Shown: positions 7,112-34,989, counted from the first letter of the stretch. The stretch: 64,000 nt of DNA from an uncultured Chromatiaceae bacterium (GCA_964421045.1 CAYQVF010000009.1:4380-68379), one strand, 5' to 3'. Notes: generated from the sequence alone by a model not told the origin. Numbers and translations: made by a program.

Positions 7112-10105
7112 TTAGTCCCTGTCGCCACACAAACTTTGGTTATCACAATGTATGCGGGCGTTAGAAAAAGACATTTTCATTTTAATGGCATTGGGGTATG
7201 GGTAGGCTATTCCCGCAGCGTTTATATTAAGATCATAACTGCCCAGAGGCATAAACCGGGGGAAAATAGCTTTAAACAGATTTTTATTCACCTGATCAGG
7301 AATGAAGTTCACTTCGGGTAATGGCTTCAATGCAGTAATCATCGTATTTCCGGCGAGATAAACTGCGTCAACTCCAGGCCAAAACCGGGTCAGTTGACCG
7401 ATTAATGGGTACTCAACCTTCAGCTTTAATTCAGGAGCAGAATATTCTAACAACGAGCCTGACGCAGCGAGAGCATATAGTTCCCCCTCAGCCAGGCTCA
7501 AATCGGTAATGGACTCATTTAACTTGATTTTATTCAGCAATGTTAAACCTGTACTCGTTAAGCGATATAATCTTAAATACTTATCGTTTTGATAGGCTAC
7601 GAGTTGATTTGAGCGAACACTAATCAAGTTTGCGGCAACAGGAAGGTCGTATTTTTTTACTAGTTTCAAATCGGAGTCAAACACCATCAATCCCGCTTCA
7701 GCCTGCTGTAAGGCAACGTATAACTTATCTGAATACCCAGCAATATCGTTAACTATGCCACCAGACCACAGGACTTGACTCATCTTTTTCCCGCTCACAT
7801 CAACACGAAGAAGCGCTTGCTCAGCTGTGATGATAAAAATGGCGTACTCACTAAGTATTATTTTTTTTGGATTAACACGCAATTCAATATGTCGCAATGC
7901 ATGAGCCTGGAAAGGATTGCTGATGTCTATTTCAGTCAATAAACCCGCATCAGAAATGACATAAGCTCGTGTCTCATTAATGGCAATCCCGACGCTGTTT
8001 CCAGGTAAATCAACACCGGTCACCCAGGTTGGGTTGAGCGGGTTTTTATTATCAAATACTTGCACCCCCCCTTCTCCATTTGCACTATAAAGATAATGAC
8101 CTTGCTCAACGACTTGCTCAACCACGCCACGCTCATGATAGCGATCTTTCAATGTCAATTTTCGGGGATTGCTAACATCAATCGTAACGACCCCACCCCA
8201 CCAGTCCATAACAAAAAGATGACCCTTATTATAAGCCAAGCCCCAGGCGGCACCGCTGGTATCATAACTGCCCAACAAACGCAGTGTGTTCACATCACTG
8301 ATATCAACAACATGAACACCGGCCAACCAATCTGCGATATAGGCATAATTCTCATGCAGATCAATGCCCCGTGCATTACCTGGCGTAGCCAGCATCGCCA
8401 AAAGTTCAGGCCTAACCGCATCTGCCACGTCAATAGCCATCAGCCCCTGGTCAAAAAAAGTAACGTAGGCAATATTATCTCTAACCCGTACATCTTCCGC
8501 TCGACCTTCAGGGTTAAACTGCCCCAGCAAACCGGGATGGCTGGGTTCGGTCACATCATAGATCAACAATCCCGCTGCATCATCCGCGATATAAGCTTTA
8601 TGATCCACGACATCGATCCCCCATGACATCCCTGGTGTATCAATATGAGCGATGATACTGGGTTGCAGTGGATTGCTGATATCGAGTATTTGGAAACCGC
8701 CCTGATGACTGGCCAGATAAAGATGATCTCCCACAATTTTGGGAATATAAGCCAAACCCGGTGTTAATATATGCGCTGCGTATTTTGGCTGCTGCACGTT
8801 GTGTACATCCACAATATGCAAGCCGTGATCATCATCGGCAATATAGGCATAACCGGCTTTGACAACCACGCCTTTTGGCGAACCCGGCGTATGATAACTG
8901 GAGATCAGTTTAATCCGTGCGGGATCACTGATGTCATAAATATGCATGCCTGAAAACCAATCCGCAACATAAGCAATATCATCTTCAATAAAAAGACGGC
9001 GCTCACCACCAAAGTTCACCCCTTGACCTGAGTCTAAACGTTGATTAGTCAACTGCGGAGGCGTAGCAGAAAAGTCTATTTTTTTTACACCACCTTGCTG
9101 AGCAATAATAATATCGTTATTATGCATGGCCAGCTCATAAATTGAACCTTTTGCATCATATACCGAGATGGTGGTTGGCATCATAGGTAAAGCAACATCA
9201 ACAACAATCACCTCCCCTTCCAGGTTGTAAAGCACCAGACGATCTTGAGCGAGATCTAATTGTAACTGGCGCACCGCTCCCAAGCGGCTATGGCTACCTA
9301 ACCAGCTCAGTTGTCCATCGGCCTGCAAACCAAGAATAAGGACACCACCCGCCCCTAAGGCAACATAGACATAAGTTCCGCCCATTTTAATATCGTAAAC
9401 AGGTAAAGAAACATGATAAGACCCCTGGTATTTTGCACCCTGCGCACTGAGCAAGTAGTACCTGATTTCTCCAGACTCAGTCACAACAAGGAGTGTATTG
9501 TCATTCACTGTAATCATATCAGCAGACTGTTCCGTCACGATGACATGGGGCTTGATCTGTTCTGTTACTGTCGTATCAAAGCGAACCACTTCTGCATGGT
9601 CCGTGGTGACATATAATTTTCCACCCTCAATAATCGCATGCTGAATCCTGGCACGACCTTGATACTGTGCCCGTAAAGCTAACTGCCCACCATCGAGTAC
9701 ATCATAGGCGGTAATATCGCCATTCGTCGTGATGACAAATAAGACATCATGACTCATCCCGACCCATTGGTATTTAGCTTGTGCTAATGTCGCTCTCTTT
9801 TTTCCTGAGTCTAAATCTCGAACCTCGAGTTCACCCTGCTCTGTAATAACAAAAACATAGTCATCAGAGACAGTCAAAAACTGCGCCTGATAAGGCAATG
9901 CAAATTTACCTACCAGCCTAGCACCACCCGGATGAAGCGTGATATTGTCCACGTTTTTTTTAACTTCTACAGCCACTGTAGTCTGTTTACCATATGAAAT
10001 AACAGCCGGATCCAGTTGCTTCAGCAACCCCGAATCAGCATTCAGGCTGCTCGCCCCTAAAAATAAACAAAGACTCCCTGAAATGATTTTAAGTTTATCT
10101 ATCAT
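7112..10105 (-). CDS. Large secreted LVIVD-repeat (beta-propeller) protein
   Basis: 997 aa with a signal peptide ([23 protein letters not shown]). It has at least 8 tandem repeats of the LVIVD type (YAYIADDDHGLHIVDVHN, AYIADDAAGLLIYDVTEP, AYIADWLAGVHVVDISDVN, LFVMDWWGGVVTIDVSNP, AYVADWFSGMHIYDISDP, LYLASHQGGFQILDISNP ...). Its start overlaps the stop of the upstream histidine kinase gene. Confidence 0.7.
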   Translation of the reverse strand: MIDKLKIISGSLCLFLGASSLNADSGLLKQLDPAVISYGKQTTVAVEVKKNVDNITLHPGGARLVGKFALPYQAQFLTVSDDYVFVITEQGELEVRDLDSGKKRATLAQAKYQWVGMSHDVLFVITTNGDITAYDVLDGGQLALRAQYQGRARIQHAIIEGGKLYVTTDHAEVVRFDTTVTEQIKPHVIVTEQSADMITVNDNTLLVVTESGEIRYYLLSAQGAKYQGSYHVSLPVYDIKMGGTYVYVALGAGGVLILGLQADGQLSWLGSHSRLGAVRQLQLDLAQDRLVLYNLEGEVIVVDVALPMMPTTISVYDAKGSIYELAMHNNDIIIAQQGGVKKIDFSATPPQLTNQRLDSGQGVNFGGERRLFIEDDIAYVADWFSGMHIYDISDPARIKLISSYHTPGSPKGVVVKAGYAYIADDDHGLHIVDVHNVQQPKYAAHILTPGLAYIPKIVGDHLYLASHQGGFQILDISNPLQPSIIAHIDTPGMSWGIDVVDHKAYIADDAAGLLIYDVTEPSHPGLLGQFNPEGRAEDVRVRDNIAYVTFFDQGLMAIDVADAVRPELLAMLATPGNARGIDLHENYAYIADWLAGVHVVDISDVNTLRLLGSYDTSGAAWGLAYNKGHLFVMDWWGGVVTIDVSNPRKLTLKDRYHERGVVEQVVEQGHYLYSANGEGGVQVFDNKNPLNPTWVTGVDLPGNSVGIAINETRAYVISDAGLLTEIDISNPFQAHALRHIELRVNPKKIILSEYAIFIITAEQALLRVDVSGKKMSQVLWSGGIVNDIAGYSDKLYVALQQAEAGLMVFDSDLKLVKKYDLPVAANLISVRSNQLVAYQNDKYLRLYRLTSTGLTLLNKIKLNESITDLSLAEGELYALAASGSLLEYSAPELKLKVEYPLIGQLTRFWPGVDAVYLAGNTMITALKPLPEVNFIPDQVNKNLFKAIFPRFMPLGSYDLNINAAGIAYPYPNAIKMKMSFSNARIHCDNQSLCGDRD

Positions 10106-12513
10106 TATATTTTTTCGGTAAGCAATAACTCTGCAGCCCCAGTCAAGCCATCCATGACGGTATAAAATTCATTATTGAAAGAGTCGAGTAACTCTGCGTA
10201 GGGAAGCCCTTCGAATAATGTTGCTTCCAGTGCTTCTATTTTTTTTGATAATTGAGTGGCACCCAAGCTAGCGGCAACACCACGCAGTGTATGCAGGAGA
10301 TGACGCACCTGTTTATCCTCTCCCAGGTTTAATGCCTTTGCCAACACGTTGGCATCATCACCATGATCCCTCACAAACTCTCTCAGCAGTTTACAAAACA
10401 ACTTGCGGTTTCCTCCGACTCGCTGCAAGCTTTCATTGATATCTATACCCGGCAGAGCGTTAAGAAAACGATCAGCTACATCAATATCTTGTTCATCATT
10501 ATTTTCCCAAGAATGCAGTTCATTGGACGATAAAGCCATCCATTTAGTCAACGTGGCATATAAAATATCAGGATCAATCGGCTTGGTAATATGATCGTCC
10601 ATTCCAGCCGCTAAAAATTTTTCTCTGTCACCGGACATGGCATGAGCGGTCATAGCAATAATAGGCAGTGTTTTACAATACACATTTTTACGGATGAGAC
10701 GGGTCGCCTGATACCCATCCATCTCCGGCATCTGTATATCCATCAGCACTAAATCAAATGTTTTTGCACGCACAGCCTGAACAGCGAACACGCCATTATT
10801 GGCAATTGTTACCCGTACACCCGTCACTTCAAGGAGCTCTTGAGCCACTTGTTGATTAATGCTGCTGTCCTCCACGACCAGTACGCGAACGCCTCTCAAG
10901 TCAGGCACTCCCCCCTTTTTCAATAATAAATCTTGTTTTTCGACGCCTTTATGAAGAGAGTGAGAACATTCAAATTCAGCATTAAAAAAGAAAGTGCTAC
11001 CCCGACCAGGCTGGCTTTTAACACCCAATGCCCCATTCATCATAATCACCAGTTGTTTGCTAATCGCCAGGCCCAAACCCGTGCCGCCATAATTTCTTGT
11101 CGTCGAACCATCGGCTTGAATAAAAGGTGCAAACAAAGCATCGGCCTTGTCAGGCTCAATGCCTATCCCGGTATCTTTTACCGAAAAATGTAACACGACC
11201 CGTTCTTCTTCTGTCTCCTGTATTTTTACAGATACATGAATATAGCCTTGTTCAGTAAACTTCAGCGCATTGCCAACAAGATTAATTAATACTTGTCCCA
11301 AGCGCAGCGAGTCTCCCACCAGGACCGCAGGAATTTTTTTGTCAATGTCATAATTCATGACTATCCCTTTTTCTGCCGCGTCTACCGACACCAAATTAGA
11401 AAGATGATCGAATACACCTTGCAAGGAAAAATCAGTTTTTTCTATTTCCAGGTGACCCGCTTCTATTTTTGAAAAATCAAGAATGTCATTAATAATACCC
11501 AGCAATGTCTTGGAGGAAGTCTGAATTTTATTTAAATAATCACTCTGCTTCGGCGTCATTTCAGTTTTAGTCGCGAGATAAGCCAAACCCATAATGGCAT
11601 TCATTGGGGTACGAATTTCATGGCTCATATTGGCGAGAAACTCACTTTTGTAACGGCTTGCCTGCTCGGCCTGTTCTTTGGCCTCCACCAGTTCCAATGT
11701 CCTTTCAGAAACCGTGTCTTCCAGTTTATCATGGGCTTGTTGAAGCGCGGTTTCAGCACTTTTTCTCGCTTCTTGCTGATGCTGGATGCGCACCAACATA
11801 TGATTAAATGCTTCGTACAAACGACCAATTTCATCTTGCGCAGGGTGGTGCACCCGCCGACTGTAATCCATATTTTGAGAGATATCATCAGCAACGCCAG
11901 CCAGCGTTAAAATCGGTTTTGAAATCACGCTCTGCAGGGCATTGGCTAACAAATAGGCCAGGGCGATTAAGAACAAAGCCGTAAACAATAGAAAAAGTCC
12001 ATATTGCCGTCGTTTATCATCGAGCTCTTTAGTGGAGAGTAATAAATAAATGCTGCCGTAGTCACGCTCCTGATAGCGAATGGGTTTAATAACATGTAAT
12101 TTGTTATCACGAAATTCGGTAAGATCATTTGTTTCAGAATGAATCATCCGGTTTGCGGCTTGTTTAACTAGTAAATCCACTGAGCTTTGGGATTTTGGAA
12201 CCGCGACATTATGCAAACGAGTGAATAATTTCCCTTTTTTGTCATACAAAAAAGCCTCTTCCACTGCCGGTGTACGCAGCAATCCAGAAAGCGTTTCCCG
12301 CGCGGCTTCTTCATCGCCAAAAAAAAGATCGGAAGCGGCATACCCCCCCACAGTATGGGCTGTAATCACCGCATTATCCAACATATTTTGCTTAAAAGCC
12401 TTCACATCCGTAAACATGACAAAACCCAAGCCCAAACTGACGACGGGAATAACCACGGCAAGAATGACAATAATGATTCTGTGGCGCAAAGACAGTTGGG
12501 CCAAAGACTTCAT
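10105..12513 (-). CDS. Hybrid sensor histidine kinase/response regulator (TM-periplasmic-TM, HAMP, HisKA, HATPase, REC, Hpt; BarA/GacS-type architecture)
   Basis: H-box [13 protein letters not shown], an HATPase region ([22 protein letters not shown]), a REC domain ([10 protein letters not shown]...[15 protein letters not shown]...TAHAMSGD) and a C-terminal Hpt ([12 protein letters not shown]). The N-terminus has two TM segments flanking a periplasmic domain of about 150 aa. Confidence 0.85.
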
Positions 12514-13046
12514 TTTTTTTCGCGACCTGTTGAAGACATCATGATCGCCAATTTAAGTAATCTTGAACTGATTTTTAAACCCACCGTTTCCGCTGCCTGC
12601 TGATTGATTTCAAAATGGAGTTTATTATTTTTACGAATAAAATTAATCATCACACCTTGATGAGCAAAGCCAGGGGTATCACTAATGGTTAATACCGGAC
12701 GATTTTGTAATGAGACAAGAATGCCCTCTAGAGCCTTGTGTTGTGTTTTTTCGATAAACAACATATCGCAATCGACAGCAGATTCAGAGCGACTCATTTG
12801 GGTAAATAATGTCGGTCTACCGTTAATGGCCAAAGATTCCAGTTTTTTCAGTTCACCTTTAAATAAATTTTTTCCAATAATGCATAATTGAAAATGCCCT
12901 TTTGAACCGCCCGGCCATTCAACAAAACGAGTGAATTTTTCCATAAACGCCGCTTTTAGTTCATACTCACTCACGCCCCCCCATGCAGGCAATGAAAAAC
13001 TTAATAGCAGCAATATCGTCAGTACACGCTTCAACAGCATTTCCAT
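12510..13046 (-). CDS. YfiR-like periplasmic protein (DUF4154)
   Basis: 178 aa with a signal peptide. The C-terminal [42 protein letters not shown] is characteristic of DUF4154/YfiR. It overlaps the kinase start by 4 nt and is 1 nt from the TBDR stop. Confidence 0.65.
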
Positions 13047-13047
13047 A

Positions 13048-15198
13048 CTAAAATTTATAATGCAATGTGAAACTCAGCAATCTTCCTGGCTGAGGTGCTT
13101 CGAGAAAAGTGACTTGAGTTGTACCTTCTGAAACATTGACATATTTTTTATCAAATAGATTGAAAATATCTGCTTTAATAGTAAAACGATCCGTGAGTTT
13201 GACCTGACTGTGTAAATCTATCCGGTAATAAGAAGGAATACGCAAACGTTTGGTGCTGTCATTGGGGGTTTTTTGTTTGTGTTGAGTCGAACCCACCCAA
13301 AATAATTTCGGTGTTAGCAAATATTTATTGTGATAGTCCAGGGTCATGCCAGCAATAAACTTGTATTTAGCAGTTAAAGGTAATTCAGAATCCCCCTCCC
13401 CCTCTTTTAACTGACCTTCAATAAAGCTGACATTCGCCCAGCTTTTCAACGTTGTTTTGTTCGCTAAAATAGATTCATTTGCAACACTCACGTCAATGCC
13501 ATAGCTTGTTGAATCTGCCATATTTTTCGATTTTTGTGTCCGCAATATCTGAGCACCCGGAATCGCTTGATCCGGTGTCTCATCCGCAGCGGTCTGTATG
13601 ATGTCAGAGACTGAAATATAATAAGAAGCCACTTTTAAATGTGTATGCTCATCAAACCAATGCTCATAATTCAATTCAAAAGTTTTTGCTTTTTCAGGCT
13701 TGAGATCCGGATTAGGTACCTGGAAGAAATCGCCTATCCACGCCCCATTACTATTTTTTTCGCCGCTAAAACCACCAAAGTGGCGAAACATTTGATCCGA
13801 TGACGGCGCGACAAAAGCATGGCCATACAATATTTTAAATACATTGCTTTCATCGTATTTATAAATGGCGCTGATACGCGGATTACGAGTTTTACCATAC
13901 AATGAATTATTATCATAACGTAGCCCGATGACCAACCGCCATTGCGAGTTAATCTCCCAATTATCTTGTAGATAAACGCCATAATTACGATAGCTTCTGG
14001 CAAAAAAAGCGATGGGGATATCGGTATTTGGATAGGTCAAAGTTTGTTCATCAGGGCTTTTTGACGTGTCGTAGCGTGCAGGTAGATCAGCGCCTACCGG
14101 TATGACGTCAAAATAATCAAAAACCAGACCTCCTGACAAATGATGATTTTGATTAAACTTGAATTCAAAATCCTGATTCAATGACACACGGTCACTGTTT
14201 CCATATTTGTAACCCGGTTTAAAGTCTGTGAATCTATTGTTGTAATAAGTATTATTTTTCAACTCATAGTTCATTGCATTAAGCAAAGTGTTTACTTTAA
14301 ACCCGGAAAACAATTCTGTTTGATAGCGCACATAAAAATTGCTCAGCCGTACTCTTTCTTGTGCATCGACATCAAACGCACTGCTTGACGGTAGCGAAGA
14401 AAAATCGTGACTATACGAGTAAGCGCTATGATTAAATCCAACTTGCCAATTTTGACCGAGACTGATGTTGCCCAGCAAACTGTAGTTTCTTGAATTAGCA
14501 AAGCGATAGCCTTTAGACGGATCGTCGTATAGCTCAGGGAAATCTTTATCAAATTCAAAATTTTGTGATTTATAAGCCTGCACACCCAGGTTAAGGTGTA
14601 CATTATCCTTTATATTATGACTGAGATGAGCGTATCCATATCGATAGTCATCTTGACCGGCGGTGACTGAAATATCAGCGACATTACGCTCGTCACTGTC
14701 CATAGTAATAATATTAATCACACCCATGAAAGCATCAGCACCATAAGAAACGGAAGCCGGCCCCATAAGTACTTCTATTTGTTTGGCGTAGTAAATAGGG
14801 AAATTTTCAAAAATAGCTAGTCTTTCACTTGCCGGTGCACTGATACGTACACCATCCTGCAAAAAAAGAAACTTGTTATTACCCACGACACCTCTTGTCG
14901 TAATCAGATTATAAGAAGCTTGCGCCGAAAAATTTTGCATTTGAACACCGGGCAAACTTTGCAGAATATCCAGCAAGCTGGTATAGCCACGCTCTCTAAT
15001 CTGCTTTTGAGTAAAAACATGAATATCTGCTGGTGTATCCCGTAGCTTTTCTTCGTATTTAGATGTCGTACTGATTTCAATATTCATCAGCTCTTGTAAC
15101 GACAGTTGACGAAGACCTTCAGAAATATCGGCTGACAGTGGGCAAGGAATAATACAGATGGCAACTACAATTAGTTTTCGTCTGAAATAGCCATCCAT
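13048..15198 (-). CDS. TonB-dependent outer-membrane receptor
   Basis: 716 aa with an N-terminal plug region (DTPADIHVF...GVQMQ, MGPASVSYGADAFMGVINIIT). The protein is beta-rich throughout and has a C-terminal aromatic (…LHYKF) typical of TBDR barrels. Confidence 0.8.
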   Translation of the reverse strand: MDGYFRRKLIVVAICIIPCPLSADISEGLRQLSLQELMNIEISTTSKYEEKLRDTPADIHVFTQKQIRERGYTSLLDILQSLPGVQMQNFSAQASYNLITTRGVVGNNKFLFLQDGVRISAPASERLAIFENFPIYYAKQIEVLMGPASVSYGADAFMGVINIITMDSDERNVADISVTAGQDDYRYGYAHLSHNIKDNVHLNLGVQAYKSQNFEFDKDFPELYDDPSKGYRFANSRNYSLLGNISLGQNWQVGFNHSAYSYSHDFSSLPSSSAFDVDAQERVRLSNFYVRYQTELFSGFKVNTLLNAMNYELKNNTYYNNRFTDFKPGYKYGNSDRVSLNQDFEFKFNQNHHLSGGLVFDYFDVIPVGADLPARYDTSKSPDEQTLTYPNTDIPIAFFARSYRNYGVYLQDNWEINSQWRLVIGLRYDNNSLYGKTRNPRISAIYKYDESNVFKILYGHAFVAPSSDQMFRHFGGFSGEKNSNGAWIGDFFQVPNPDLKPEKAKTFELNYEHWFDEHTHLKVASYYISVSDIIQTAADETPDQAIPGAQILRTQKSKNMADSTSYGIDVSVANESILANKTTLKSWANVSFIEGQLKEGEGDSELPLTAKYKFIAGMTLDYHNKYLLTPKLFWVGSTQHKQKTPNDSTKRLRIPSYYRIDLHSQVKLTDRFTIKADIFNLFDKKYVNVSEGTTQVTFLEAPQPGRLLSFTLHYKF

Positions 15199-18088: not shown

Positions 18089-19213
18089 TTAAGAGTCGAT
18101 GATGGCTTGCTCTATCTGTTGCCTTAAATCAGCAATCCAGATTTTTATTAAACGATTAGAAACAACACAAAAAATGGATAGGATCATCATACGATAGACC
18201 CAGGGTCGAGCCACTTTTATACGCTGAGAAGCATCCAGATAACAGCCAAAGCGTGCTAGCTTAGCCAACGTCGCTAACCCTATCAGCAAGGGCCACAAAG
18301 CCGCAAGCCGTAAACGAAAACAGTACCAGGGTATGGCTAAAACATATTGTTCAGCTTCACCATAATAAGCCAAAGCCTTTCTTAACCACTTATGAATAAT
18401 CGGTTTTACCGCGTTACTTTTTTCTGCATCAAGAAGTTGTTGTGGTGTCAATGCCGCAGCACATAACTCATCAAGTGGTAAATAACAACGTCCTTCACTC
18501 AAGTCTTCAGGTAGGTCTCGCAGAATATTGGTCAACTGTAATGCCTTGCCGTAACGGACACCTTGTTCACTCATGGCGGCAACATCCCAATGGCTTAGTG
18601 CCTTGTCATATCGACTTATAATTTCTGTCCAAAATGCGCCCACGCAACCCGCTACGCGATAAATATAATCATCCAATTCAGAGTCATTTGCCAAAGCGAT
18701 GGGTTGAGCTTTAGGAGCGTGGTGAAAACGCTGCATATCCAGTTCCATGCCACTGATTAACACATTGACGACGTTAGCAATGGCGGCTTTATCTTGAGCT
18801 CCCACAGAATAAAATTCAGACAACACAAATGGAATACTTTTCAACAAGCAACGCTCAGCAGGATCCTTGATACCCTTAATAAGCGACGGGGTAACAATAT
18901 CAGCCTGCCTCGACGGATCTTCCAGTACGCCGCGTAAAGTGATCAATACCGCCAGGCGCTGCGCAGCAGAGACTTCAGTAGAATCAGCGATCGTATCTGC
19001 GGCTCTGGCCAGCAAGTAGGCTATGGCGATAGGCAGCCTCGCACCGGCGGGCAACACTCTGAGCGTTAAATAAAAACTACGAGAAACCGATTTGAGTTGC
19101 GCTAAAAAAGCGCGTTCGGTTTTCACTAAGGGTCGTCTACCATACTTTTGTGATCTCTCAGGATGAACAACTAATGCAAATTTCTCCTGCCCAGGCGGGT
19201 GGTTTTTGTGCAT
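18089..19213 (-). CDS. Squalene/phytoene synthase family protein (squalene synthase-like) with a hydrophobic C-terminal tail
   Basis: Has the trans-isoprenyl diphosphate synthase head-to-head motifs (SRSFYLTLRVLP; YCYRVAGCVGAFWTE; GKALQLTNILRDLPEDLSEGRCYLP). The C-terminal ~60 aa are hydrophobic. The annotated start (an alternative start codon) overlaps the selO 3' end by ~56 nt, so the true start may lie further downstream. Confidence 0.6.
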   Translation of the reverse strand: MHKNHPPGQEKFALVVHPERSQKYGRRPLVKTERAFLAQLKSVSRSFYLTLRVLPAGARLPIAIAYLLARAADTIADSTEVSAAQRLAVLITLRGVLEDPSRQADIVTPSLIKGIKDPAERCLLKSIPFVLSEFYSVGAQDKAAIANVVNVLISGMELDMQRFHHAPKAQPIALANDSELDDYIYRVAGCVGAFWTEIISRYDKALSHWDVAAMSEQGVRYGKALQLTNILRDLPEDLSEGRCYLPLDELCAAALTPQQLLDAEKSNAVKPIIHKWLRKALAYYGEAEQYVLAIPWYCFRLRLAALWPLLIGLATLAKLARFGCYLDASQRIKVARPWVYRMMILSIFCVVSNRLIKIWIADLRQQIEQAIIDS

Positions 19214-20636
19214 AATGAGCGTACGATGGTTGCTCGTCGAAAGGTCGACGTAACAAGGTTAACAATCGCTCTACCTCACTAAAATCATTCTCATTTTCAG
19301 CTAATTTTATTGCTGATTCTGCCATATGATTCCGCAAAATATACTTTGCATTCACTTTTTTCATACGAACATGCCTGTCTGTGTCACGACTCTTCTCTTG
19401 AAATAAACGTACGCGATACCGGGCTAACCAATCTGACATACCCCGTGAATTTGAGAATTGTTCTGCTAAAGCATTTTGCGACGACTCTTGCTCAGCGTGC
19501 AACGCACTCAGTTGACGAAAAAACAAGGTATAGTCAACCTGCCCTTCCATTAATGCCAACAAAGATTCCATTAATTCAGAATCCCCTTTTTCTTGCTCAA
19601 ACAAGCCTAGTTTGTCTCGCGAAATATTGAGATACGCTGTTTGGTATAATGCTTGATAGTGAGAAAGTTCTGCCTTGGCAAATTCTGCTGCACGCTCAGG
19701 GTCATCATCAAACAAGGGCAACATGGCCTGTGCCAAACAACTGAGATTAAACAAACCTATTTGTGGTTGTTGTGAAAAAGCATAACGCCCAGAAGTATCA
19801 GAGTGATTGCAGATATAATTTGCTTCATAGGTATCGAGGAAAGCGAAGGGGCCATAATCCAAAGTTAAGCCAATGATCGACATATTATCCGTGTTCAACA
19901 CTCCGTGAGCAAAGCCAACGCTTTGCCACTGCGCAATCAATTTAGCCGTTTTTTTTAGCACCACGGCAAATAGCTTTTGATAAGCGTCAGCCTGCCCTTC
20001 TAAGTCGGGGTAGTGCTCACGAATAACGTAGTCTGCCAAAAGCTGTAAATAATCAAATTTTTGCGCATAATAAAAATACTCCAAACTACCAAAGCGTACA
20101 TGACTCTGTGCAACACGCAACATCATCGCTCCCGGCTCAAATGTTTCACGATAAACCATTTGTTTGCTGGAAATTAAAGCCAAAGCACGGGTCGTAGGAA
20201 TGCCCAAACCATGCATTGCTTCACTACAAAGGTATTCCCTAATACAGGAACGCAAAACAGCACGACCATCACCTTGCCGCGAGTAACGGGTGATGCCACT
20301 GCCCTTGATTTGAAGATCCCACAGTTGTTGCTGCTTATCCCTGATTTGCCCTAATAAAACCGCACGACCATCGCCCAAGCGCGGCACATAGGTACCAAAT
20401 TGATGTCCGGCATAGCACATGGCTAAGGGCTCACTGCCAGACCAGGCATCAATACCCGTGACATAGCGGATAAATTGTTGCGCATTAAACTCAGCCTGTG
20501 TGAAACTCAGCAATGACTGGACATCAGAATTCAAACTGGCAAACGCAGTCCCCTCCAGAGGCTCAGGTGAAACCTTGTGATAAAATTCTGCGGGTAAACG
20601 AGCGTATTGATTATCAAATTTTAGTTGGTTAAACAT
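19158..20636 (-). CDS. selO: Protein adenylyltransferase SelO (YdiU/UPF0061)
   Basis: 492 aa and collinear with E. coli YdiU (YAGHQFG; LGDGRAVL; KGSGITRYSRQGDGRAVLRSCIREYLCSEAMHGLGIPTTRALAL; GFAHGVLNTDNMSIIGLTLDYGPFAFLD; C-terminal ...SCSS). Confidence 0.9.
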   Translation of the reverse strand: MFNQLKFDNQYARLPAEFYHKVSPEPLEGTAFASLNSDVQSLLSFTQAEFNAQQFIRYVTGIDAWSGSEPLAMCYAGHQFGTYVPRLGDGRAVLLGQIRDKQQQLWDLQIKGSGITRYSRQGDGRAVLRSCIREYLCSEAMHGLGIPTTRALALISSKQMVYRETFEPGAMMLRVAQSHVRFGSLEYFYYAQKFDYLQLLADYVIREHYPDLEGQADAYQKLFAVVLKKTAKLIAQWQSVGFAHGVLNTDNMSIIGLTLDYGPFAFLDTYEANYICNHSDTSGRYAFSQQPQIGLFNLSCLAQAMLPLFDDDPERAAEFAKAELSHYQALYQTAYLNISRDKLGLFEQEKGDSELMESLLALMEGQVDYTLFFRQLSALHAEQESSQNALAEQFSNSRGMSDWLARYRVRLFQEKSRDTDRHVRMKKVNAKYILRNHMAESAIKLAENENDFSEVERLLTLLRRPFDEQPSYAHYAQKPPAWAGEICISCSS

Positions 20637-20685
20637 AGCAATTTAGGAACCGTCGCATTGATAAAAAGATCATATTTCAATAAAC

Positions 20686-20796: not shown

Positions 20797-22200
20797 CTAC
20801 CCTACAGAAGAAGATTCTACAGGACTATTTTTAGGCACCTTGAAAGCACCAGGATCAACCTCATGACGATGTAATAATTTATAGAACTCGGTACGATTTC
20901 GTTTGGCTAATCTTGCAGCCTGACTCACATTGCCCGCTGTAATTTTCAAAATTTTCAAAATATAATCTTTTTCAAAGCGAGCTTTTGCATCTTTCAAAGA
21001 AGGTAAGTCCATCGGCACCTCTCGTAGCGCACCTTTAACTAAGCTTGCAGGAATCACCTGCGTTGTACATAAAGTAAACGCTTGCTCCACGATGTTACGT
21101 AATTGCCGTACATTTCCCGGCAAGGGCGCGAGCAATAATAATTCAAGAGCAGCAGGTGAAAAATTTTTCAAAGCTTTGTCGTATTTATAAGACAACTCAC
21201 TTAAGAATTTATTCACGATTAAGGTAATATCTTCCCGTCGCTCTGATAATGGAGGAATTTCCAACGACACGACGTTTAATCGATAATACAAATCTTCTCG
21301 AAATTGCCCTAAACGTATTTCTTCATTAATATCCCGGTGTGTCGCCGAAATCAGGCGAATATCAACGGCGATGTCTTGAGTAGAGCCTAATACACGAATG
21401 ACCCGCTCCTGAATCACTCTTAATAGCTTCGCTTGTAAAGAAACAGGCATATCTCCAATTTCATCAAGAAAAAGTGTGCCTCCATTTGCTTCTTGTATTA
21501 ATCCCTTGTGGTTTCTTGTCGCTCCAGTAAAAGCACCTTTGTTATAACCAAATAACTCCGACTCTAAAAGTTGCTCTGGAATAGCAGCACAATTAATCGT
21601 GACAAAGGCCTTGTCTTTTCTGGGGCTCGCACGGTGTATTGCCTGAGCAAAAAGTTCTTTACCTGTACCGCTATCGCCTCTAATAAAAACACTGGCATCG
21701 CTTTGCGCAACTAACCAGGCCTGCTGGATTAAATCTTCCATTAACGAGCTTCGTGTAATGATCTCTTTACGCCATTCATCGTCAACATTAGTCGATGATG
21801 AGACTTCGGGCATGCTACTGCCCATCCCCACCAACCCCACTGCTTTTTCTACCTGGGATAAAAGATCTTTACTGTCAAAAGGTTTAGTTAAAAAGCCAAA
21901 AACACCTTTGTGCGTCGCATTGATCGCATCAGGTATAGAACCATGCGCCGTTAGAATAATAACGGGCAATGAAGGGTTGTCTCTTTGAATCACTTCTAAT
22001 AGCTCTATGCCATTCATTCCGCCCATTTTCAAGTCAGTAATAACTAGGTGAGGGCGTGAAATCGTTAATTGGTCTATTGCCTTTTCCGCGCTATCTACTG
22101 CAGTGACGTCATAATTTGCCGTTTTAAGCCGTAATGAAAGTAATTGCAAAAGATCTTTGTCATCATCGACAATTAATATTGTTGCTCGATTCGTTATCAT
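20797..22200 (-). CDS. Sigma54-dependent two-component response regulator (NtrC family; GlrR/QseF-like)
   Basis: 467 aa with an N-terminal REC domain (ILIVDDD...VITDLKMGGMNG) and a central sigma54-interaction AAA+ domain (GDSGTGKELFAQAIH; GAFTGA; ESELFGY). The C-terminus carries a Fis-type HTH. Confidence 0.85.
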   Translation of the reverse strand: MITNRATILIVDDDKDLLQLLSLRLKTANYDVTAVDSAEKAIDQLTISRPHLVITDLKMGGMNGIELLEVIQRDNPSLPVIILTAHGSIPDAINATHKGVFGFLTKPFDSKDLLSQVEKAVGLVGMGSSMPEVSSSTNVDDEWRKEIITRSSLMEDLIQQAWLVAQSDASVFIRGDSGTGKELFAQAIHRASPRKDKAFVTINCAAIPEQLLESELFGYNKGAFTGATRNHKGLIQEANGGTLFLDEIGDMPVSLQAKLLRVIQERVIRVLGSTQDIAVDIRLISATHRDINEEIRLGQFREDLYYRLNVVSLEIPPLSERREDITLIVNKFLSELSYKYDKALKNFSPAALELLLLAPLPGNVRQLRNIVEQAFTLCTTQVIPASLVKGALREVPMDLPSLKDAKARFEKDYILKILKITAGNVSQAARLAKRNRTEFYKLLHRHEVDPGAFKVPKNSPVESSSVG

Positions 22201-22829
22201 GGTGTAACGGTTCCTTCATTCATATCTCGTTGAATTATACTCGTTTCTATCGACTTAAGCAGTGTCAACTGGCGCTTGATTTTTTCTCTTTCCGCTTCGC
22301 TTTCAGACAGTTTATCTTTTAATTTCTGGTTTTTCTTTTCCAGTTCACTGTACTTGGAATCCAGAGAATACATCTCTTGGCTCAGTCGCATATTTTCTTG
22401 TAACCAACGACGATACTGTTTTCCCAAGAAAGCCAGAAAGTGCTCTGATTGGCTACGCTCCGACGAGTCATCTTTTAAATTTCCGTCTCTTATTAGAGAC
22501 AGAACTTGCTCTGCTGACTTTGTACTTTTATCGCTATAAGCCTGTAATAAAATCAACTTATATCGATTTAACATGCTCGGCTGATTCGTAAAATCAGCCT
22601 TTACTTCAACCAATAACTGCGCTAACTGTTTATCGCTAAGCCCTTCATATATCTTGGTAAATTGACTTATTTCTTGTAGCTCATAATAGGCAGAATATTG
22701 GGTCTGAAACAAAACCTGGCGTCCTGTGTTGCCTACTCCCGATGTTCGTTCAAACGCAATACAACCCGTTAACAAGAACATCAAACCAACCAGAACCAGC
22801 CTTGCTAAAGTATATCTAGCATAATTCAT
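22197..22829 (-). CDS. Coiled-coil lipoprotein (QseG/YfhG-like position between kinase and regulator)
   Basis: 210 aa. It has a lipobox (LTGC) after a signal peptide and a C-terminal coiled-coil (KYSELEKKNQKLKDKLSESEAEREKIKRQL). It overlaps both neighbouring genes by 4 nt. Confidence 0.5.
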   Translation of the reverse strand: MNYARYTLARLVLVGLMFLLTGCIAFERTSGVGNTGRQVLFQTQYSAYYELQEISQFTKIYEGLSDKQLAQLLVEVKADFTNQPSMLNRYKLILLQAYSDKSTKSAEQVLSLIRDGNLKDDSSERSQSEHFLAFLGKQYRRWLQENMRLSQEMYSLDSKYSELEKKNQKLKDKLSESEAEREKIKRQLTLLKSIETSIIQRDMNEGTVTP

Positions 22830-24286
22830 GCCGCCACCATATTTAAATTCATCGGTAACGTCACTCTGAAGTGCGCACCAGAGCTGGCATCTTGAACGAC
22901 CCTGATGCTACCTCGATGTATATCAACCAACTCACGGGCAATAGACAAACCTAACCCACTCCCTCTGATGTCACCATGAGGCATGACACTCCCTCGATAA
23001 AACGATTCAAAAACCCGCTCCGTGTCTTCTGGGGAAATACCCGGCCCATAGTCTTTGACATCCAGCAAAAGTTCATTTTTACGCCTTCTTAACTGAATCA
23101 GCAATGGACTCCGGTCAGGAGAATATTTAATCGCATTCGAAATTAAATTATCGATAACAATACGTAATTTTTCACCATCACCGTTCAGCTCAATAGGCAC
23201 ACAATTCAATCTAACTTGAATACCCTTAGCTAATAAGGCCAGGTTGTGGTCAGCCAAAACATTATTAACAATCTCACTCATGGAAACCAATGAGACATTC
23301 AGGCTCGCTGTACCCGTTTCTAACATATTAAAACTCAGTAAATTTTCTATCATTTTTTGTAACAACAGCGTATTTCTTTGTATCAATTGAGCGACCTCGC
23401 GCTGCTCCGTATTCAGTTTGCCTAATAAGTCTTCAGCAAGTAAGGCACTGCCTTCTTTTACGGCGGTTAATGGCGTTTTTAATTCATGCGAAACATGCCT
23501 GACAAAGCTGCCTTTTTTACGCTCTAAATCAGCTAATCTTTTCCGCAACCAATTCAACCGGGTACCAATACGTTGTAAATCTTCAGGGCCGGTCACCACG
23601 ATTTTTTGATCCAGCTCTCTTTCACCCAACTGTCGTATGGCTTTGTCAATTTGACGTACGGGTTTCGATAAGATATTGGACAACAATACTGCAAAAGCCA
23701 GCGTTCCTGGTACCAAAGCGATGGCCTGCCACAACAGGACTGTTTCTGCATTTTTTGTCATTTCCGCCAAAGCATTAACTTGATCGTTTATCCACGTCTG
23801 ACTTTCTGACAAAATAGATTCTGCTAACAGGCTCAAGCCAGTATATTCCTCCTCAGGGTTAAATGCGCGCTCTGTAGAACGACTTGCACGAAGAAGGAAT
23901 TCAAATAATATATTTTCTTTAGCAATTAATATTTCAATCTGACTCTTTAAAAATTCCGTATCAATCAATCCCGAAAGCGTCTCTGCTGTTTGATGAAACT
24001 GCTCTCGTCTACTTTTGTAGCCACTTAACAAACTCTTATCTTTCAAAATTTGATATTGTCTTGCATTTCTCTCTAACACGGTAATTTGATCTGTTAATAA
24101 GCGACTCACCGTAGCAACTTGTGCAGAACGATAGACTGTCGATTCACTTTTGACAAACATCTTGTCCAAATAAAAACCCATATGAACCAACGCCACAGCC
24201 AGTGGTAACGTAATTAATGCAAACGCCATTAACAGCAGTTTAAAAAAGGACTTTGGATGATAATCAAAACGAGGTTTTTTGAACAT
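22826..24286 (-). CDS. Sensor histidine kinase (2 TM, periplasmic domain, HAMP, HisKA, HATPase; GlrK/QseE-like)
   Basis: 486 aa with an H-box (VSHELKTPLTAV) and HATPase motifs (DNLISNAIKYSP, DYGPGISPED, GSGLGLSIAREL). Two TM segments flank a periplasmic domain of about 150 aa. Confidence 0.8.
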   Translation of the reverse strand: MFKKPRFDYHPKSFFKLLLMAFALITLPLAVALVHMGFYLDKMFVKSESTVYRSAQVATVSRLLTDQITVLERNARQYQILKDKSLLSGYKSRREQFHQTAETLSGLIDTEFLKSQIEILIAKENILFEFLLRASRSTERAFNPEEEYTGLSLLAESILSESQTWINDQVNALAEMTKNAETVLLWQAIALVPGTLAFAVLLSNILSKPVRQIDKAIRQLGERELDQKIVVTGPEDLQRIGTRLNWLRKRLADLERKKGSFVRHVSHELKTPLTAVKEGSALLAEDLLGKLNTEQREVAQLIQRNTLLLQKMIENLLSFNMLETGTASLNVSLVSMSEIVNNVLADHNLALLAKGIQVRLNCVPIELNGDGEKLRIVIDNLISNAIKYSPDRSPLLIQLRRRKNELLLDVKDYGPGISPEDTERVFESFYRGSVMPHGDIRGSGLGLSIARELVDIHRGSIRVVQDASSGAHFRVTLPMNLNMVAA

Positions 24287-24310
24287 TTTACACCTTTCCA
24301 GCTAACGACC

Positions 24311-24326
24311 GTCTCTTTTTAGAGAC
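24311..24326. promoter_or_regulatory. Short perfect hairpin/palindrome GTCTCT-TTTT-AGAGAC, 25-40 nt upstream of the kinase start codon
   Basis: Seen directly. On the minus strand it precedes GGAAAGG and the ATG at 24286. Confidence 0.3.
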
Positions 24327-24512
24327 GAATTGTCGCATACTTATTCTAACCATGAAAGAACAAAGGATCTTCCAAGCTCTTTAAATTGTATCTATTTTAC
24401 CATTTTTTACGACCTGGATTCCTTGCATTTAAAGTATTGAAACCTGAGCCATGGTCGAGCATAATTAAGACATTGCCAGAGGCTGTCTGAGAATAGGGAT
24501 CGTCGTAAGAAC

Positions 24513-24979
24513 CTCGGTATTCCCTTGTGGGGCGAAGGCCATTTTGCATCCGCAAGGAACATAAAAGTCCGGTTTTTCGATCAAATGATGAAATACATCC
24601 TTATATTTCATCCCGTTGGGGGGTGGCTTCGCGATTCCAATTCGTTCCCGACGAATGGGTAAGGCGGATAATGAGCCTATTGAACGAAAATAATCGGAAA
24701 AATAGGCCAAAATGGCTTGGTTGTAGTACGAATATAGGGATATGGAGCTGCCGAAAGTCAGTCTGTTCTCGGACTGCCGCCCAGGAGGCTATCGGCAACT
24801 AGATTAAGCGATTGCGAAAAACCCATTATGACTCACAATAAGCCTATTCGCCCCACTTATTTCCTGGAAGTGAACAGGAATGACGAAGCAACCTAATGGG
24901 GTATTGTTTATTCATAAAACTTGGCTTTTATGCTCCTTGCGGATGCAAAATGGCCTTCCCCCCACAAGGGGATACCGAG
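24513..24979. repeat. ~467-bp element bounded by 55-bp terminal inverted repeats (3 mismatches); candidate MITE or structured RNA locus
   Basis: Seen directly. Arm 1 (24513-24567) is CTCGGTATTCCCTTGTGGGGCGAAGGCCATTTTGCATCCGCAAGGAACATAAAAG. The reverse complement of arm 2 (24925-24979) is CTCGGTATCCCCTTGTGGGGGGAAGGCCATTTTGCATCCGCAAGGAGCATAAAAG. A 357-bp core lies between them. The repeat creates the spurious shared peptide PCGCKMAF in two opposite-strand ORFs. Confidence 0.6.
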
Positions 24980-25075
24980 ACTCTCGCAACGATGACTATG
25001 CTCGGGCAACCTTCTAGGTCGCGTCATCAAAAACAGCCTTCACAAATCGACAATCATTATAAACAGGAGAACAAA

Positions 25076-25867
25076 ATGGGATTTTTGCAGGATAAAAAGG
25101 CGCTCATTGTAGGACTGGCCAGTAATCGTTCCATTGCATGGGGCGTTGCAAAAGCAATGCATCGAGAAGGAGCTTCTCTGGCATTTACCTACCAAAACGA
25201 CAAACTCAAAGGGCGTGTTGAAAAATTTGCGGCTGAACTCGATTCGGATATCACCTTACCCTGCGATGTAGCCCAAGACGAACAAATTGAAGCGGTCTTT
25301 GAGCGTCTGGATGATTTTTGGGATCACATCGACATTATTATTCATTCAGTGGCATTTGCACCGAGCACAGAGTTAGAGGGTGACTATCTCGATGCCGTCA
25401 CTCGTGAAGGATTTCGTACCGCACACGAAATCAGTTCATATAGCTTTGCAGCGCTTGCCAAAGCCGGTAGAAATATGATGGAAGGACGCAATGGTGCCTT
25501 GCTAACCTTAAGCTATATCGGCGCTCAAAAATCGGTTCCTTATTACAATGTCATGGGGCTAGCCAAAGCCAGCCTGGAAGCCAACGTCCGTTATATGGCC
25601 AGCTCCTTAGGCCCAGACAATATCCGCGTCAACGCCATCTCCGCCGGCCCGATCAAAACCCTTGCCGCAGCAGGGATCAGCAATTTTCGCAAAATGTTAA
25701 AACATGTAGAAGAAAATGCGCCATTGCGCCGCAACGTGACAATAGATGATGTTGGCAACGCGGCGGCCTTCCTATGTTCTGACTTAGCCGCAGGGATAAC
25801 CGGTGAAATAACTTATGTAGATTCAGGCTATAATACGGTTGGTATGACCATGCCTGACGAAGAATAA
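25076..25867 (+). CDS. fabI: Enoyl-[acyl-carrier-protein] reductase (NADH), FabI
   Basis: The real start is the ATG at 25076 after AGGAGA; the upstream part of the listed ORF is an artefact of the inverted repeat. The 263-aa protein is an SDR with FabI motifs ([19 protein letters not shown]; SIAFAPS; [17 protein letters not shown]; [11 protein letters not shown]). Confidence 0.88.
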
Positions 25868-27963: not shown

Positions 27964-28040
27964 GGCGGAGCGGACGGGACTCGAACCCGCGACCACCGGC
28001 GTGACAGGCCGGTATTCTAACCAACTGAACTACCGCTCCA
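27964..28040 (-). tRNA. tRNA-Asp (GTC)
   Basis: Reverse complement GGAGCGGTAGTTCAGTTGGTTAGAATACCGGCCTGTCACGCCGGTGGTCGCGGGTTCGAGTCCCGTCCGCTCCGCCA. This gives a cloverleaf with a GTC anticodon loop and the GGTTCGAGTCC T-arm. Confidence 0.9.
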
Positions 28041-28048
28041 ATAATTTT

Positions 28049-28123
28049 GGTGGGTGCTGAGGGGATCGAACCCCCGACCCTCGCCTTGTAAGGGCGATGC
28101 TCTACCAGCTGAGCTAAGCACCC
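28049..28123 (-). tRNA. tRNA-Val (TAC)
   Basis: Reverse complement GGGTGCTTAGCTCAGCTGGTAGAGCATCGCCCTTACAAGGCGAGGGTCGGGGGTTCGATCCCCTCAGCACCCACCA. The anticodon is TAC. Confidence 0.9.
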
Positions 28124-34444: not shown

Positions 34445-34529
<85 letters not shown>

Positions 34530-34586
34530 AAATATTATTATTAGCAGCTATTTTAAGATGATTTCTGTTAATCACCTTATTCAATT

Positions 34587-34663
34587 TGGGGTGGATGATG
34601 GGGCTTGAACCCACGACCACCGGAATCACAATCCGGGGCTCTACCAACTGAGCTACACCCACC
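34587..34663 (-). tRNA. tRNA-His (GTG)
   Basis: Reverse complement GGTGGGTGTAGCTCAGTTGGTAGAGCCCCGGATTGTGATTCCGGTGGTCGTGGGTTCAAGCCCCATCATCCACCCC, with the extra 5' G characteristic of tRNA-His. The anticodon is GTG. The exact 3' end is uncertain. Confidence 0.85.
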
Positions 34664-34750
34664 ATATTTTTCGCGTAACCGTCCAGCGTCATTCCAACCG
34701 CTGAATCGTTGCTTCCTTACTACTGGCCTGACAAGCCCTTTTAATAAAAA

Positions 34751-34827
34751 TGGCGCGCCTGGCAGGATTCGAACCTGCTACCCTCGGCTTAGAAGGCCGA
34801 TGCTCTATCCTGATGAGCTACAGGCGC
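34751..34827 (-). tRNA. tRNA-Arg (TCT)
   Basis: Reverse complement GCGCCTGTAGCTCATCAGGATAGAGCATCGGCCTTCTAAGCCGAGGGTAGCAGGTTCGAATCCTGCCAGGCGCGCCA. The anticodon is TCT. Confidence 0.88.
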
Positions 34828-34912
34828 AAGTCACCCTGCGTACCTACCAAAAATAACGTGGCATAGACCTTCACAGCTTTTGGTATAAAGACTGCTCTGT
34901 CTGCCAATTTCT

Positions 34913-34989
34913 TGGTCGGGGTAGAGGGATTCGAACCCCCGACATCCTGCTCCCAAAGCAGGCGCGCTACCAGACTGCGCTATACCCCG
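34913..34989 (-). tRNA. tRNA-Pro (TGG)
   Basis: Reverse complement CGGGGTATAGCGCAGTCTGGTAGCGCGCCTGCTTTGGGAGCAGGATGTCGGGGGTTCGAATCCCTCTACCCCGACCA. The anticodon is TGG. Confidence 0.88.

Follow-up and report, generated by a model that had tools for sequence, protein, structure and literature searches.

Organization of the locus

Three minus-strand open reading frames fill positions 20797-24286 of the window (the whole 64,000-nucleotide stretch of DNA analysed here). They encode a sensor kinase, a lipoprotein, and a sigma-54 dependent regulator, in the order given by the first-pass annotation, and the operon has fabI and selO as its neighbours. The genes and the non-coding features within and upstream of them are as follows.

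22826-24286, minus strand: QseE/GlrK-type sensor histidine kinase, 486 aa, with TM1, periplasmic sensor, TM2, HAMP, HisKA, and HATPase_c
22197-22829, minus strand: diverged QseG-type accessory lipoprotein, 210 aa, with lipobox LTGC, Cys23, Ile at +2, a helical body, and a long C-terminal helix
20797-22200, minus strand: QseF/GlrR-type sigma-54 dependent response regulator, 467 aa, with Response_reg, Sigma54_activat, AAA_lid_14, and HTH_8 (Pfam)
22484-22501: box 2, a near-copy of box 1 inside the lipoprotein gene, minus-strand reading TGTCTCTAATAAGAGACG, 328 nt after the lipoprotein ATG
24310-24327: box 1, candidate GlrR-type site in the leader of the operon, a palindrome (CGTCTCTTTTTAGAGACG) that stops 23 nt short of the kinase ATG
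24394-24402, minus strand: TGGTAAAAT, probable extended -10 of the operon's sigma-70 type promoter, as read from the sequence
24437-24465, plus strand: sigma-70 type promoter TTGAAA-N17-CATAAT toward fabI, the best promoter-like site of the region (10/12)
24479-25020: diverged inverted duplication affecting the fabI-proximal leader and forming an imperfect palindrome some 540 bp long; does not belong to the signalling module

The coordinates give 4-nt overlaps between kinase and lipoprotein genes (22826-22829) and between lipoprotein and regulator genes (22197-22200), and both junctions read ATGA (..GGCATGAAT.. and ..CCATGAT..), which is kept in five lineages. The first-pass annotation had described both overlaps correctly, but not the coupling itself, which it had called exactly that of the enterobacterial operon, because in E. 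coli glrK and qseG are separated by a 164-nt gap and qseG and glrR overlap by 11 nt. The same operon occurs in two related loci, L004 and L005, whose kinases are 98% and 79% identical, respectively, to that of the window. Across all three, the extended -10 and the fabI-directed promoter are invariant, and we infer that the spacer between fabI and the kinase gene carries back-to-back sigma-70 type promoters, with predicted starts near 24388 (minus strand) and 24472 (plus strand).

A GlrR-type regulator and a GlrK-type kinase

The genes had been read at first pass as a QseE-QseG-QseF (GlrK-YfhG-GlrR)-like module to be aligned with its enterobacterial namesakes, and the regulator and kinase bear this out. 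The regulator combines a REC domain containing D56, an AAA+ domain with GAFTGA, and a C-terminal Fis-type HTH (HTH_8), and shares 54% of its residues with E. coli GlrR in a full-length alignment of 449 aa, the recognition helix (RNRTEFYKLL) being identical. Its best NCBIfam model is GlrR (NF011695) at 576.7 bits, compared with 396.3 for NtrC, 390.7 for AtoC, 383.9 for ZraR, and likewise no more than 396 for LuxO; the score lies under the equivalog cut-off of 763 of a model trained on Enterobacterales. The kinase has hydropathy-predicted transmembrane segments at approximately residues 13-37 and 182-207, and therefore a periplasmic domain of about 140 aa. It aligns with E. coli GlrK at 29% identity over residues 58-482 (E 2e-59), sensor included, while out-group kinases from paralogous loci align over only about 220-310 aa. 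In the alignment, S61 of the kinase matches QseE S58, and R73 and R76 of its ERNARQY motif correspond to QseE R70 and R73 (ERSYRQY in E. coli). Both of these arginines are QseG-contact residues of QseE (PMC12691602), and S58 is also among the contact residues (PMC6075780).

Gene content follows the same division. Where relatives of the regulator share 46-62% identity with it, kinase, lipoprotein, and regulator occur together in 16/17 scorable loci, and the fetched loci carry this architecture into Desulfobacterota and Nitrospira MAGs. Among paralogous loci, defined by regulator relatives at 45% identity or less, none of 61 has a lipoprotein gene between kinase and regulator, the kinase either abutting the regulator or being absent. 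These observations bear on whether the locus could instead be a different NtrC-family pair (NtrBC, AtoSC, ZraSR, or PilSR) into which an unrelated gene has been inserted, a reading to which the REC-AAA+-HTH architecture common to all these families and the sub-threshold GlrR score lend some plausibility. Against it stand the 180-bit lead of the GlrR model over the next best, the alignment of the kinase sensor with GlrK with its QseG-contact residues kept, and a middle lipoprotein gene that belongs to the GlrR-like clade and is missing from the paralogous loci. We consider such a pair exceedingly improbable and, as far as sequence can decide the matter, already refuted.

A highly diverged, probably QseG-type lipoprotein

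The middle gene is strongly diverged from its enterobacterial counterpart. Its product has the lipobox LLTGC, and the residue at +2 is Ile, so that it lacks the inner-membrane retention signal of the +2 rule of E. coli Lol sorting. An AlphaFold2 model is all-helical, with a single long C-terminal helix spanning residues 127-204. The Pfam family of the YfhG lipoprotein (PF13942, Lipoprotein_20), which scores E. coli QseG at 269.7 bits, does not match the window protein even at E<=10; the protein therefore falls outside the Pfam family as delimited and can be called QseG solely in the wider sense of PMC12691602. The link to QseG is transitive: hhalign connects the window lipoprotein with the middle lipoproteins of non-enteric orthologous operons (96.7%, E 4.6e-10), and these in turn with enterobacterial QseG (94.7%, E 6e-8). 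In the profile alignments, the C-terminal motif L191-x2-I-E195-x5-R201, whose L191, E195, and R201 are invariant within the clade, is in register with E. coli QseG L198/E202/R208, the C-terminal interface residues that correspond to L209, E213, and R219 in Salmonella. The top PDB match in Foldseek is likewise QseG (7x6f), at a level that is not significant.

On the transitive profile match and the C-terminal L-x2-IE-x5-R motif, we take the middle lipoprotein to be, probably, a very diverged QseG. The lipoprotein of this lineage is also rare, with only five proteins found among 5.8 billion at E<=1e-3 and nothing beyond the already known L008 contig in a second metagenome scan with the lipoprotein alignment.

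The inverted-repeat element upstream of the operon

Upstream of the kinase, the first-pass annotation had marked a 467-bp non-coding element flanked by inverted repeats. The inverted repeat is real, though its extent differs: the ungapped arms (24480-24585 and 24907-25012) are 106 nt long, 80% complementary, and 321 nt apart, and when gaps are allowed nearly all of 24479-25020 becomes one imperfect palindrome with a minimum free energy of -257.7 kcal/mol, compared with -171 kcal/mol for shuffles (z = -11.2). Single arms do not fold into structure beyond that of shuffles. A MITE or REP was considered and rejected: an inverted duplication accounts better for a similarity that does not stop at the "spacer" but runs through it, and for the presence of only one copy in L004; the duplicated stretch of fabI leader is about 240 nt. 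L005 has no copy, and there is none elsewhere in the window. A search of metagenome contigs with a 24-nt core pattern also returned no copies; that scan missed even the copy of L004, and the collection therefore does not cover the sample from which L004 derives. Its position, downstream of the conserved fabI promoter, places the element in the fabI leader, and it is a strain- or lineage-specific inverted duplication of that leader, unrelated to the signalling system and, for the purpose of understanding it, a red herring.

The search for a sigma-54 target

In Enterobacterales, glmY sits immediately upstream of glrK, and the first-pass annotation had accordingly suggested the upstream element as the regulated target, to be sought through sigma-54 promoters preceded by TGTC-N10-GACA sites. 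Such a scan yields two palindromes (boxes 1 and 2, below) and no -24/-12 promoter. Neither strand of 24287-25075 has a -24/-12 promoter or any GG-N10-GC motif scoring above 14.5, and no credible intergenic site came out of sigma-54 scans, strict or weighted, across the whole window. The candidates rejected along the way were a TGGATTCCTTGCAT look-alike at about 24415, with a spacing 3 nt too short; a motif resembling TGGCATGAATTATGCT where the kinase and lipoprotein genes meet (22818-22833), which straddles the start codon and has lost its GG in L007; and CGGTTCCTAAATTGCT at 20637-20652, which abuts the selO ATG and was rejected because no room is left for a leader. Rfam searches of the upstream spacer at E<=10 returned only noise, with no GlmY/GlmZ or other family, and neither the window nor L004 or L005 has a match to GlmY (RF00128 or a related clan family). 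Among the relatives' loci scanned, GlmY was detected only in Xenorhabdus, which served as the positive control for the model at 142.7 bits.

The idea that the inverted-repeat element or the upstream spacer encodes a GlmY-like sRNA, whose sigma-54 promoter the regulator would activate, draws on the enterobacterial gene order, on the presence of a GlrR-type box in the same spacer, and on the very stable fold that the element would adopt if transcribed. However, there is no Rfam family and no promoter motif to go with it, the TGGATTCCTTGCAT look-alike is missing in L005 as well as being misspaced, the arms alone are unstructured, L004 has half of the element and L005 none of it although the operon is the same in both, and the place of the element downstream of the fabI promoter makes it fabI leader. 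The proposal is thus largely refuted, and we regard it as very improbable.

At E. coli glmY, the same scan for sites and promoters picks up the sigma-54 promoter and all three known GlrR sites. It also finds GlrR sites together with a sigma-54 promoter beside the operon in at least 10 non-enteric relatives, where the promoters drive genes for EF-hand, BON, MdoG, SH3, or bactofilin proteins. These patterns suggest that in beta-, gamma-, and deltaproteobacterial relatives the envelope or periplasmic proteins encoded beside the operon are likely direct targets of the system. The true sigma-54 target of the system in the window is probably elsewhere in the genome and, by analogy with these relatives, probably a periplasmic or envelope protein. 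Outside Enterobacterales, GlmY is then not to be expected next to qseEGF, and the envelope targets would offer a testable view of the role of the system before the GlmY cascade arose; we found no treatment of them in the qseEGF literature cited here.

Two conserved palindromes within the operon

The hairpin that had been noted upstream of the kinase exists, and it also fits the GlrR-site consensus: it is box 1, CGTCTCTTTTTAGAGACG, with a 7-bp stem and an AAAA loop, lying just upstream of the ribosome-binding site. L004 and L005 have box 1 at the corresponding position, L004 in the form of the exact TGTCTCTAAAAAGAGACA. It matches the E. coli glmY site TGTCTCTTTTTAGCGACA at 15/18 positions in the window and 17/18 in the L004 version, and the change from T..A to C..G between the L004 and window versions preserves its symmetry. 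In each of the clade's five lineages box 2 is found at the codons for LSLIRD, with half-sites kept and a variable spacer, a conservation not clearly beyond coding constraint. The pattern YGTCTC-N6-GAGACR that describes both boxes has no other match in 64 kb, where 0.00 matches were expected (100 shuffles), and in about 1.1 Mb of fetched sequence (90 loci) it is confined to these two positions in this clade and to the glmY upstream sites of Xenorhabdus and Arsenophonus. Apart from boxes 1 and 2, the 64 kb has no good regulator-type site; the regulator gene does contain an exact match to TGTC-N10-GACA, at 21177-21194, but this is not conserved in L004 or L005 and is therefore probably a chance occurrence.

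We put at roughly even odds the reading in which both boxes are binding sites of the regulator and provide sigma-54 independent feedback on the operon. A serious competitor, to which we give about a one-in-three chance, is that neither is a regulator site, box 1 acting as an mRNA leader hairpin that affects stability or translation and box 2 being a by-product of the peptide LSLIRD. The stem and loop placed 23 nt before the kinase ATG and next to the ribosome-binding site would suit such a hairpin, between L004 and the window the change from U-A to C-G compensates in RNA as well as preserving DNA symmetry, no sigma-54 promoter is close by, and the variation in box 2 is limited to synonymous positions and the spacer, its rate not clearly unlike that of the rest of the gene. 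Yet a plain hairpin has no need of a GlrR-site sequence, nor of a second, nearly identical copy elsewhere in the operon, and the confinement of the pattern in the 90 loci, these boxes apart, to real GlrR upstream sites points back to binding by the regulator.

The regulator could also use box 1 to activate or repress the divergent fabI from upstream, linking envelope sensing to fatty-acid synthesis. About 110 bp separate box 1 from the conserved fabI promoter downstream of it, and in the Propionivibrio-like loci L023 and L024 the boxes are in the divergent spacer with a sigma-54 promoter facing a divergent bactofilin gene. Control of fabI is nevertheless unlikely, as its promoter is a near-consensus sigma-70 promoter without any -24/-12 element and bEBPs normally do not activate sigma-70 promoters. 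We are only slightly less doubtful of a broader proposal in which the regulator binds the two conserved TGTCTC-N6-GAGACR palindromes and either holds back its own operon independently of sigma-54, as a repressor or roadblock, or modulates fabI; if true, an outer-membrane lipoprotein sensor would be coupled to fatty-acid synthesis, replacing the enterobacterial GlmY-GlmS route.

A QseE-QseG-QseF type system and its relation to known systems

With good confidence, we interpret the locus, which comes from an uncultured marine gammaproteobacterium, as a three-component envelope-signalling system of the QseE-QseG-QseF type that has no adjacent glmY, carries operon-internal candidate sites, and probably has its target elsewhere. 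By analogy with E. coli and Salmonella, the outer-membrane lipoprotein would span the periplasm through its C-terminal helix, its conserved L/E/R motif would bind the periplasmic sensor of the inner-membrane kinase via the arginines of ER-x2-RQY, and binding would switch on kinase autophosphorylation. Homology suggests that the kinase would then phosphorylate D56 of the regulator, which in its phosphorylated form would activate sigma-54 promoters from sites of the TGTC-N10-GACA type. Boxes 1 and 2 inside the operon may allow the regulator to exert sigma-54 independent feedback on it, and a sigma-54 driven target would lie elsewhere in the genome.

The likeness to the E. coli and Salmonella QseE-QseG-QseF system with glmY (PMC3045617, PMC6075780, PMC12691602) extends to gene order, with the lipoprotein gene in the middle, to the equivalents of S58/R70/R73 in the kinase sensor and the C-terminal L..IE.....R of the lipoprotein, to a 54% identical regulator that shares D56, GAFTGA, and the recognition helix, and to the presence of TGTC-N10-GACA type palindromes. 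Unlike its enterobacterial counterparts, the window lacks glmY, a sigma-54 promoter, and the triple array of upstream sites before the operon; relative to E. coli, its lipoprotein is too diverged for PF13942, its candidate sites are inside the operon, and ATGA coupling replaces the gap and longer overlap. The wide distribution of qseEGF across Pseudomonadota and its activation mechanism were reported in 2025, including 135 non-enterobacterial systems in Gamma- and Betaproteobacteria and Acidithiobacillia (PMC12691602), and a KEGG-based distribution is given in PMC8895600. The locus therefore adds to a known system, as one more diverged member that matters little by itself. Like the non-enterobacterial systems (PMC12691602), it has qseG between qseE and qseF, strong divergence, and conserved interface residues; unlike them at large, it belongs to a lineage whose lipoprotein is rare.

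The regulator shares its architecture (REC, sigma-54 AAA+, Fis-type HTH) with those of NtrB-NtrC, AtoS-AtoC, and ZraS-ZraR, from which it differs in that their models reach only 384-396 bits against 577 and their kinases are cytoplasmic or otherwise different. Outer-membrane lipoproteins also report the state of the envelope to an inner-membrane signalling protein in NlpE-CpxA and RcsF-IgaA-RcsCD. The reporting from lipoprotein to inner membrane is alike, but those proteins are not related to the ones here, their output does not depend on sigma-54, and, in contrast to the window, their lipoprotein genes stand apart from the two-component operon. The genomic setting differs from that of E. coli too, with fabI and selO as neighbours in place of purL and glnB.

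A QseE-QseG-QseF-type operon

Among the three minus-strand genes, the kinase/lipoprotein and lipoprotein/regulator junctions are each a 4-nt overlap (ATGA), an arrangement kept in five related lineages, and the module described in the first-pass annotation is borne out by these sequences and by the ORF coordinates:

22826-24286, minus strand: kinase, 486 aa; Pfam HAMP, HisKA, HATPase_c
22197-22829, minus strand: lipoprotein, 210 aa; lipobox LLTGC, Cys23; no domain assigned in a Pfam search
20797-22200, minus strand: regulator, 467 aa; Pfam Response_reg, Sigma54_activat, AAA_lid_14, HTH_8

The QseE-QseG-QseF (GlrK-YfhG-GlrR) identity proposed for the module also stands, on the regulator's best NCBIfam model, a GlrK match that extends through the sensor, and a transitive link between the lipoprotein and QseG. 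The regulator aligns with Escherichia coli GlrR at 54% identity (449 residues), carries D56 and GAFTGA, and has an identical recognition helix (RNRTEFYKLL). Its 576.7 bits against the GlrR model, short of the 763 set there as equivalog cut-off, is by far the best in NCBIfam, with NtrC, AtoC, ZraR, and LuxO at 396 or less, which argues against a different NtrC-family pair. The kinase aligns with GlrK at 29% identity from residue 58 to the C-terminus, sensor included; hydrophobic segments at about 13-37 and 182-207 flank a periplasmic domain some 140 aa long, in which S61 and the ERNARQY motif are the counterparts of QseE S58 and R70/R73, residues required experimentally for QseG binding (PMC6075780 for S58; PMC12691602 for R70/R73).

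The lipoprotein shows no similarity to E. coli QseG in direct comparison and no match to Pfam PF13942, and only five relatives were found at E<=1e-3 among 5.8 billion proteins. Profile alignments nevertheless connect its clade to the lipoproteins encoded at the middle position of orthologous operons from non-enteric bacteria (hhalign 96.7%, E 4.6e-10), and these to enterobacterial QseG (94.7%, E 6e-8). Through these alignments L191, E195, and R201, invariant in the clade, fall in register with QseG L198, E202, and R208, which correspond to Salmonella L209, E213, and R219, of which L209 and R219 are essential (PMC12691602). The AlphaFold2 model is helical, with a single long C-terminal helix at 127-204 (mean pLDDT 71).

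With the regulator as query and one genome per species, relatives form a distinct group at 46-62% identity, beyond which identity falls to at most 45%. Represented in the group are Sulfuriferula, Herbaspirillum, Kushneria, Neptunomonas, Pseudoalteromonas, Xenorhabdus, Arsenophonus, Propionivibrio, Desulfocapsa, and Desulfuromonadales and Nitrospira MAGs. A kinase gene could be called directly upstream of the regulator in 17 of its 19 loci, and 16 of these 17 have a lipobox-bearing ORF of 166-290 aa between the two. Across the 61 loci below that group, the kinase directly adjoins the regulator or is missing, and kinase similarity is limited to the catalytic core. This agrees with the reported occurrence of qseEGF clusters, with qseG always central, across Gamma- and Betaproteobacteria and Acidithiobacillia (2025, PMC12691602) and with a KEGG-based survey (PMC8895600), so the operon is one more module of an already described type. 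If the module works like its enterobacterial homologue, which has been studied by experiment, the lipoprotein would activate the kinase, which would phosphorylate the regulator, which would activate sigma-54 promoters.

The fabI-kinase spacer

The spacer is 789 bp long in the window and shorter in L004 (470 bp) and L005 (256 bp), two close relatives with the same operon (kinase 98% and 79% identical to the window, lipoprotein 90% and 53%, respectively). A block common to all three holds both promoter motifs, and the remainder is lineage-specific:

24437-24465, towards fabI: near-consensus sigma-70 promoter, TTGAAA-N17-CATAAT
24402-24394, towards kinase: extended -10, TGGTAAAAT
24480-24585 and 24907-25012: ungapped arms of an inverted repeat

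The hairpin (24310-24327) and inverted repeat reported upstream of the kinase are both present, and the region they occupy had been proposed as a GlmY-like, sigma-54-regulated target. The results argue against this: the -24/-12 scan of the spacer found no motif, Rfam searches of spacer and window gave no match, and a GlmY search that detects the Xenorhabdus gene was negative in the window's clade and other non-enteric relatives. The sigma-54 target in this organism probably lies outside the 64 kb examined. The element at 24479-25020 consists of some 240 nt of the fabI leader duplicated in inverted orientation, with divergence between the copies: its left half, reverse-complemented, aligns with both its right half and the sole copy in L004. 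The repeat unit is absent from L005. Two more results weigh against its being the regulated target: the window has no further copy of the element, and the arms are not structured when folded singly. Together, 24472-25080 folds as a single giant hairpin (-257.7 kcal/mol versus -171 for shuffles, z = -11.2).

Transcription from 24437-24465 would give fabI a 5' leader of about 600 nt folded into a single hairpin with roughly 270 imperfect base pairs, which might open the mRNA to double-strand specific processing in the window's strain only. The listed 323-aa fabI ORF has a spurious N-terminal extension through a repeat arm (24896-25075); translation truly begins at the ATG at 25076 (MGFLQDKK...), in agreement with the 263-aa gene calls of L004 and L005.

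Candidate regulator sites and sigma-54 promoters

Two similar boxes lie within the operon:

24310-24327: box 1, the hairpin in the operon leader, CGTCTCTTTTTAGAGACG
22484-22501: box 2, near-copy in the lipoprotein gene, minus-strand reading TGTCTCTAATAAGAGACG

Box 1 in L004 (TGTCTCTTTTTAGAGACA) matches the E. coli glmY site (TGTCTCTTTTTAGCGACA) at 17/18 positions, and box 2 is found at identical codon positions in each of the five lineages. The window has two occurrences of YGTCTC-N6-GAGACR, against 0.00 in 100 shuffles, and the looser YGTCTC-N6-GAGAYR, across 90 fetched loci, recovers only glmY upstream sites besides the two boxes. These patterns would fit regulator binding sites giving operon feedback, a reading to which we assign an even chance because box 2 conservation does not clearly exceed the constraint from the conserved peptide LSLIRD and box 1 might just as well function as a hairpin in RNA.

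Two other motifs were rejected. An exact TGTC-N10-GACA inside the regulator gene (21177-21194, TGTCGTATTTATAAGACA) is probably due to chance, since L004 has only a degraded version and L005 none; a sigma-54-like motif across the kinase stop and lipoprotein start (22818-22833, minus strand, CGGCATGAATTATGCT; TGGCATGAATTATGCT in L004) is probably a coding by-product, since the related locus L007 lacks the GG.

A scan combining TGTC-N10-GACA with a weighted sigma-54 matrix picks up all three GlrR sites of E. coli together with its glmY promoter. In Xenorhabdus, Arsenophonus, Kushneria, and one uncultured gammaproteobacterium it finds equivalent arrays preceding the kinase. Beta- and deltaproteobacterial relatives instead have sites and promoter on the downstream side of the regulator, and Propionivibrio-like loci have them within the divergent spacer.

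Loci of non-enteric relatives in which strong sigma-54 promoters follow GlrR-type boxes beside the qseEGF-like operon
Downstream of regulator: L009, L011, L012, L015, L017, L019
Upstream of kinase: L013, L014
Divergent: L023, L024

The genes faced by these promoters encode secreted EF-hand proteins, BON-domain proteins, MdoG/OpgG, an SH3 protein, and a bactofilin, and are candidates for what the system controls directly in bacteria other than Enterobacterales. In the Kushneria locus (L014, 4166-4880), three GlrR-type boxes and two sigma-54-like promoters (4300, 4380) are followed by about 500 nt without a convincing ORF before the kinase gene. An Rfam GlmY search of this interval gave no match, and it may hold an unrelated sRNA or long leader in Halomonadaceae.

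Other features of the window

The tig-clpP-clpX-lon-ppiD neighborhood is typical apart from its tRNA genes, two between lon and ppiD (27966-28123) and four just past trigger factor on the side opposite clpP (34448-34989), and the lack of a hupB-sized ORF between lon and ppiD. The squalene/phytoene synthase-like ORF (18089-19213), which overlaps the end of selO (19158-20636) by 56 nt as listed, is probably over-extended, since the L004 call (345 aa) starts further downstream. A second sensory cluster on the minus strand (7112-15198) encodes a TonB-dependent receptor, a YfiR/HmsC-like protein, a hybrid histidine kinase (CHASE8, HAMP, REC, Hpt), and a 997-aa LVIVD-repeat beta-propeller protein.
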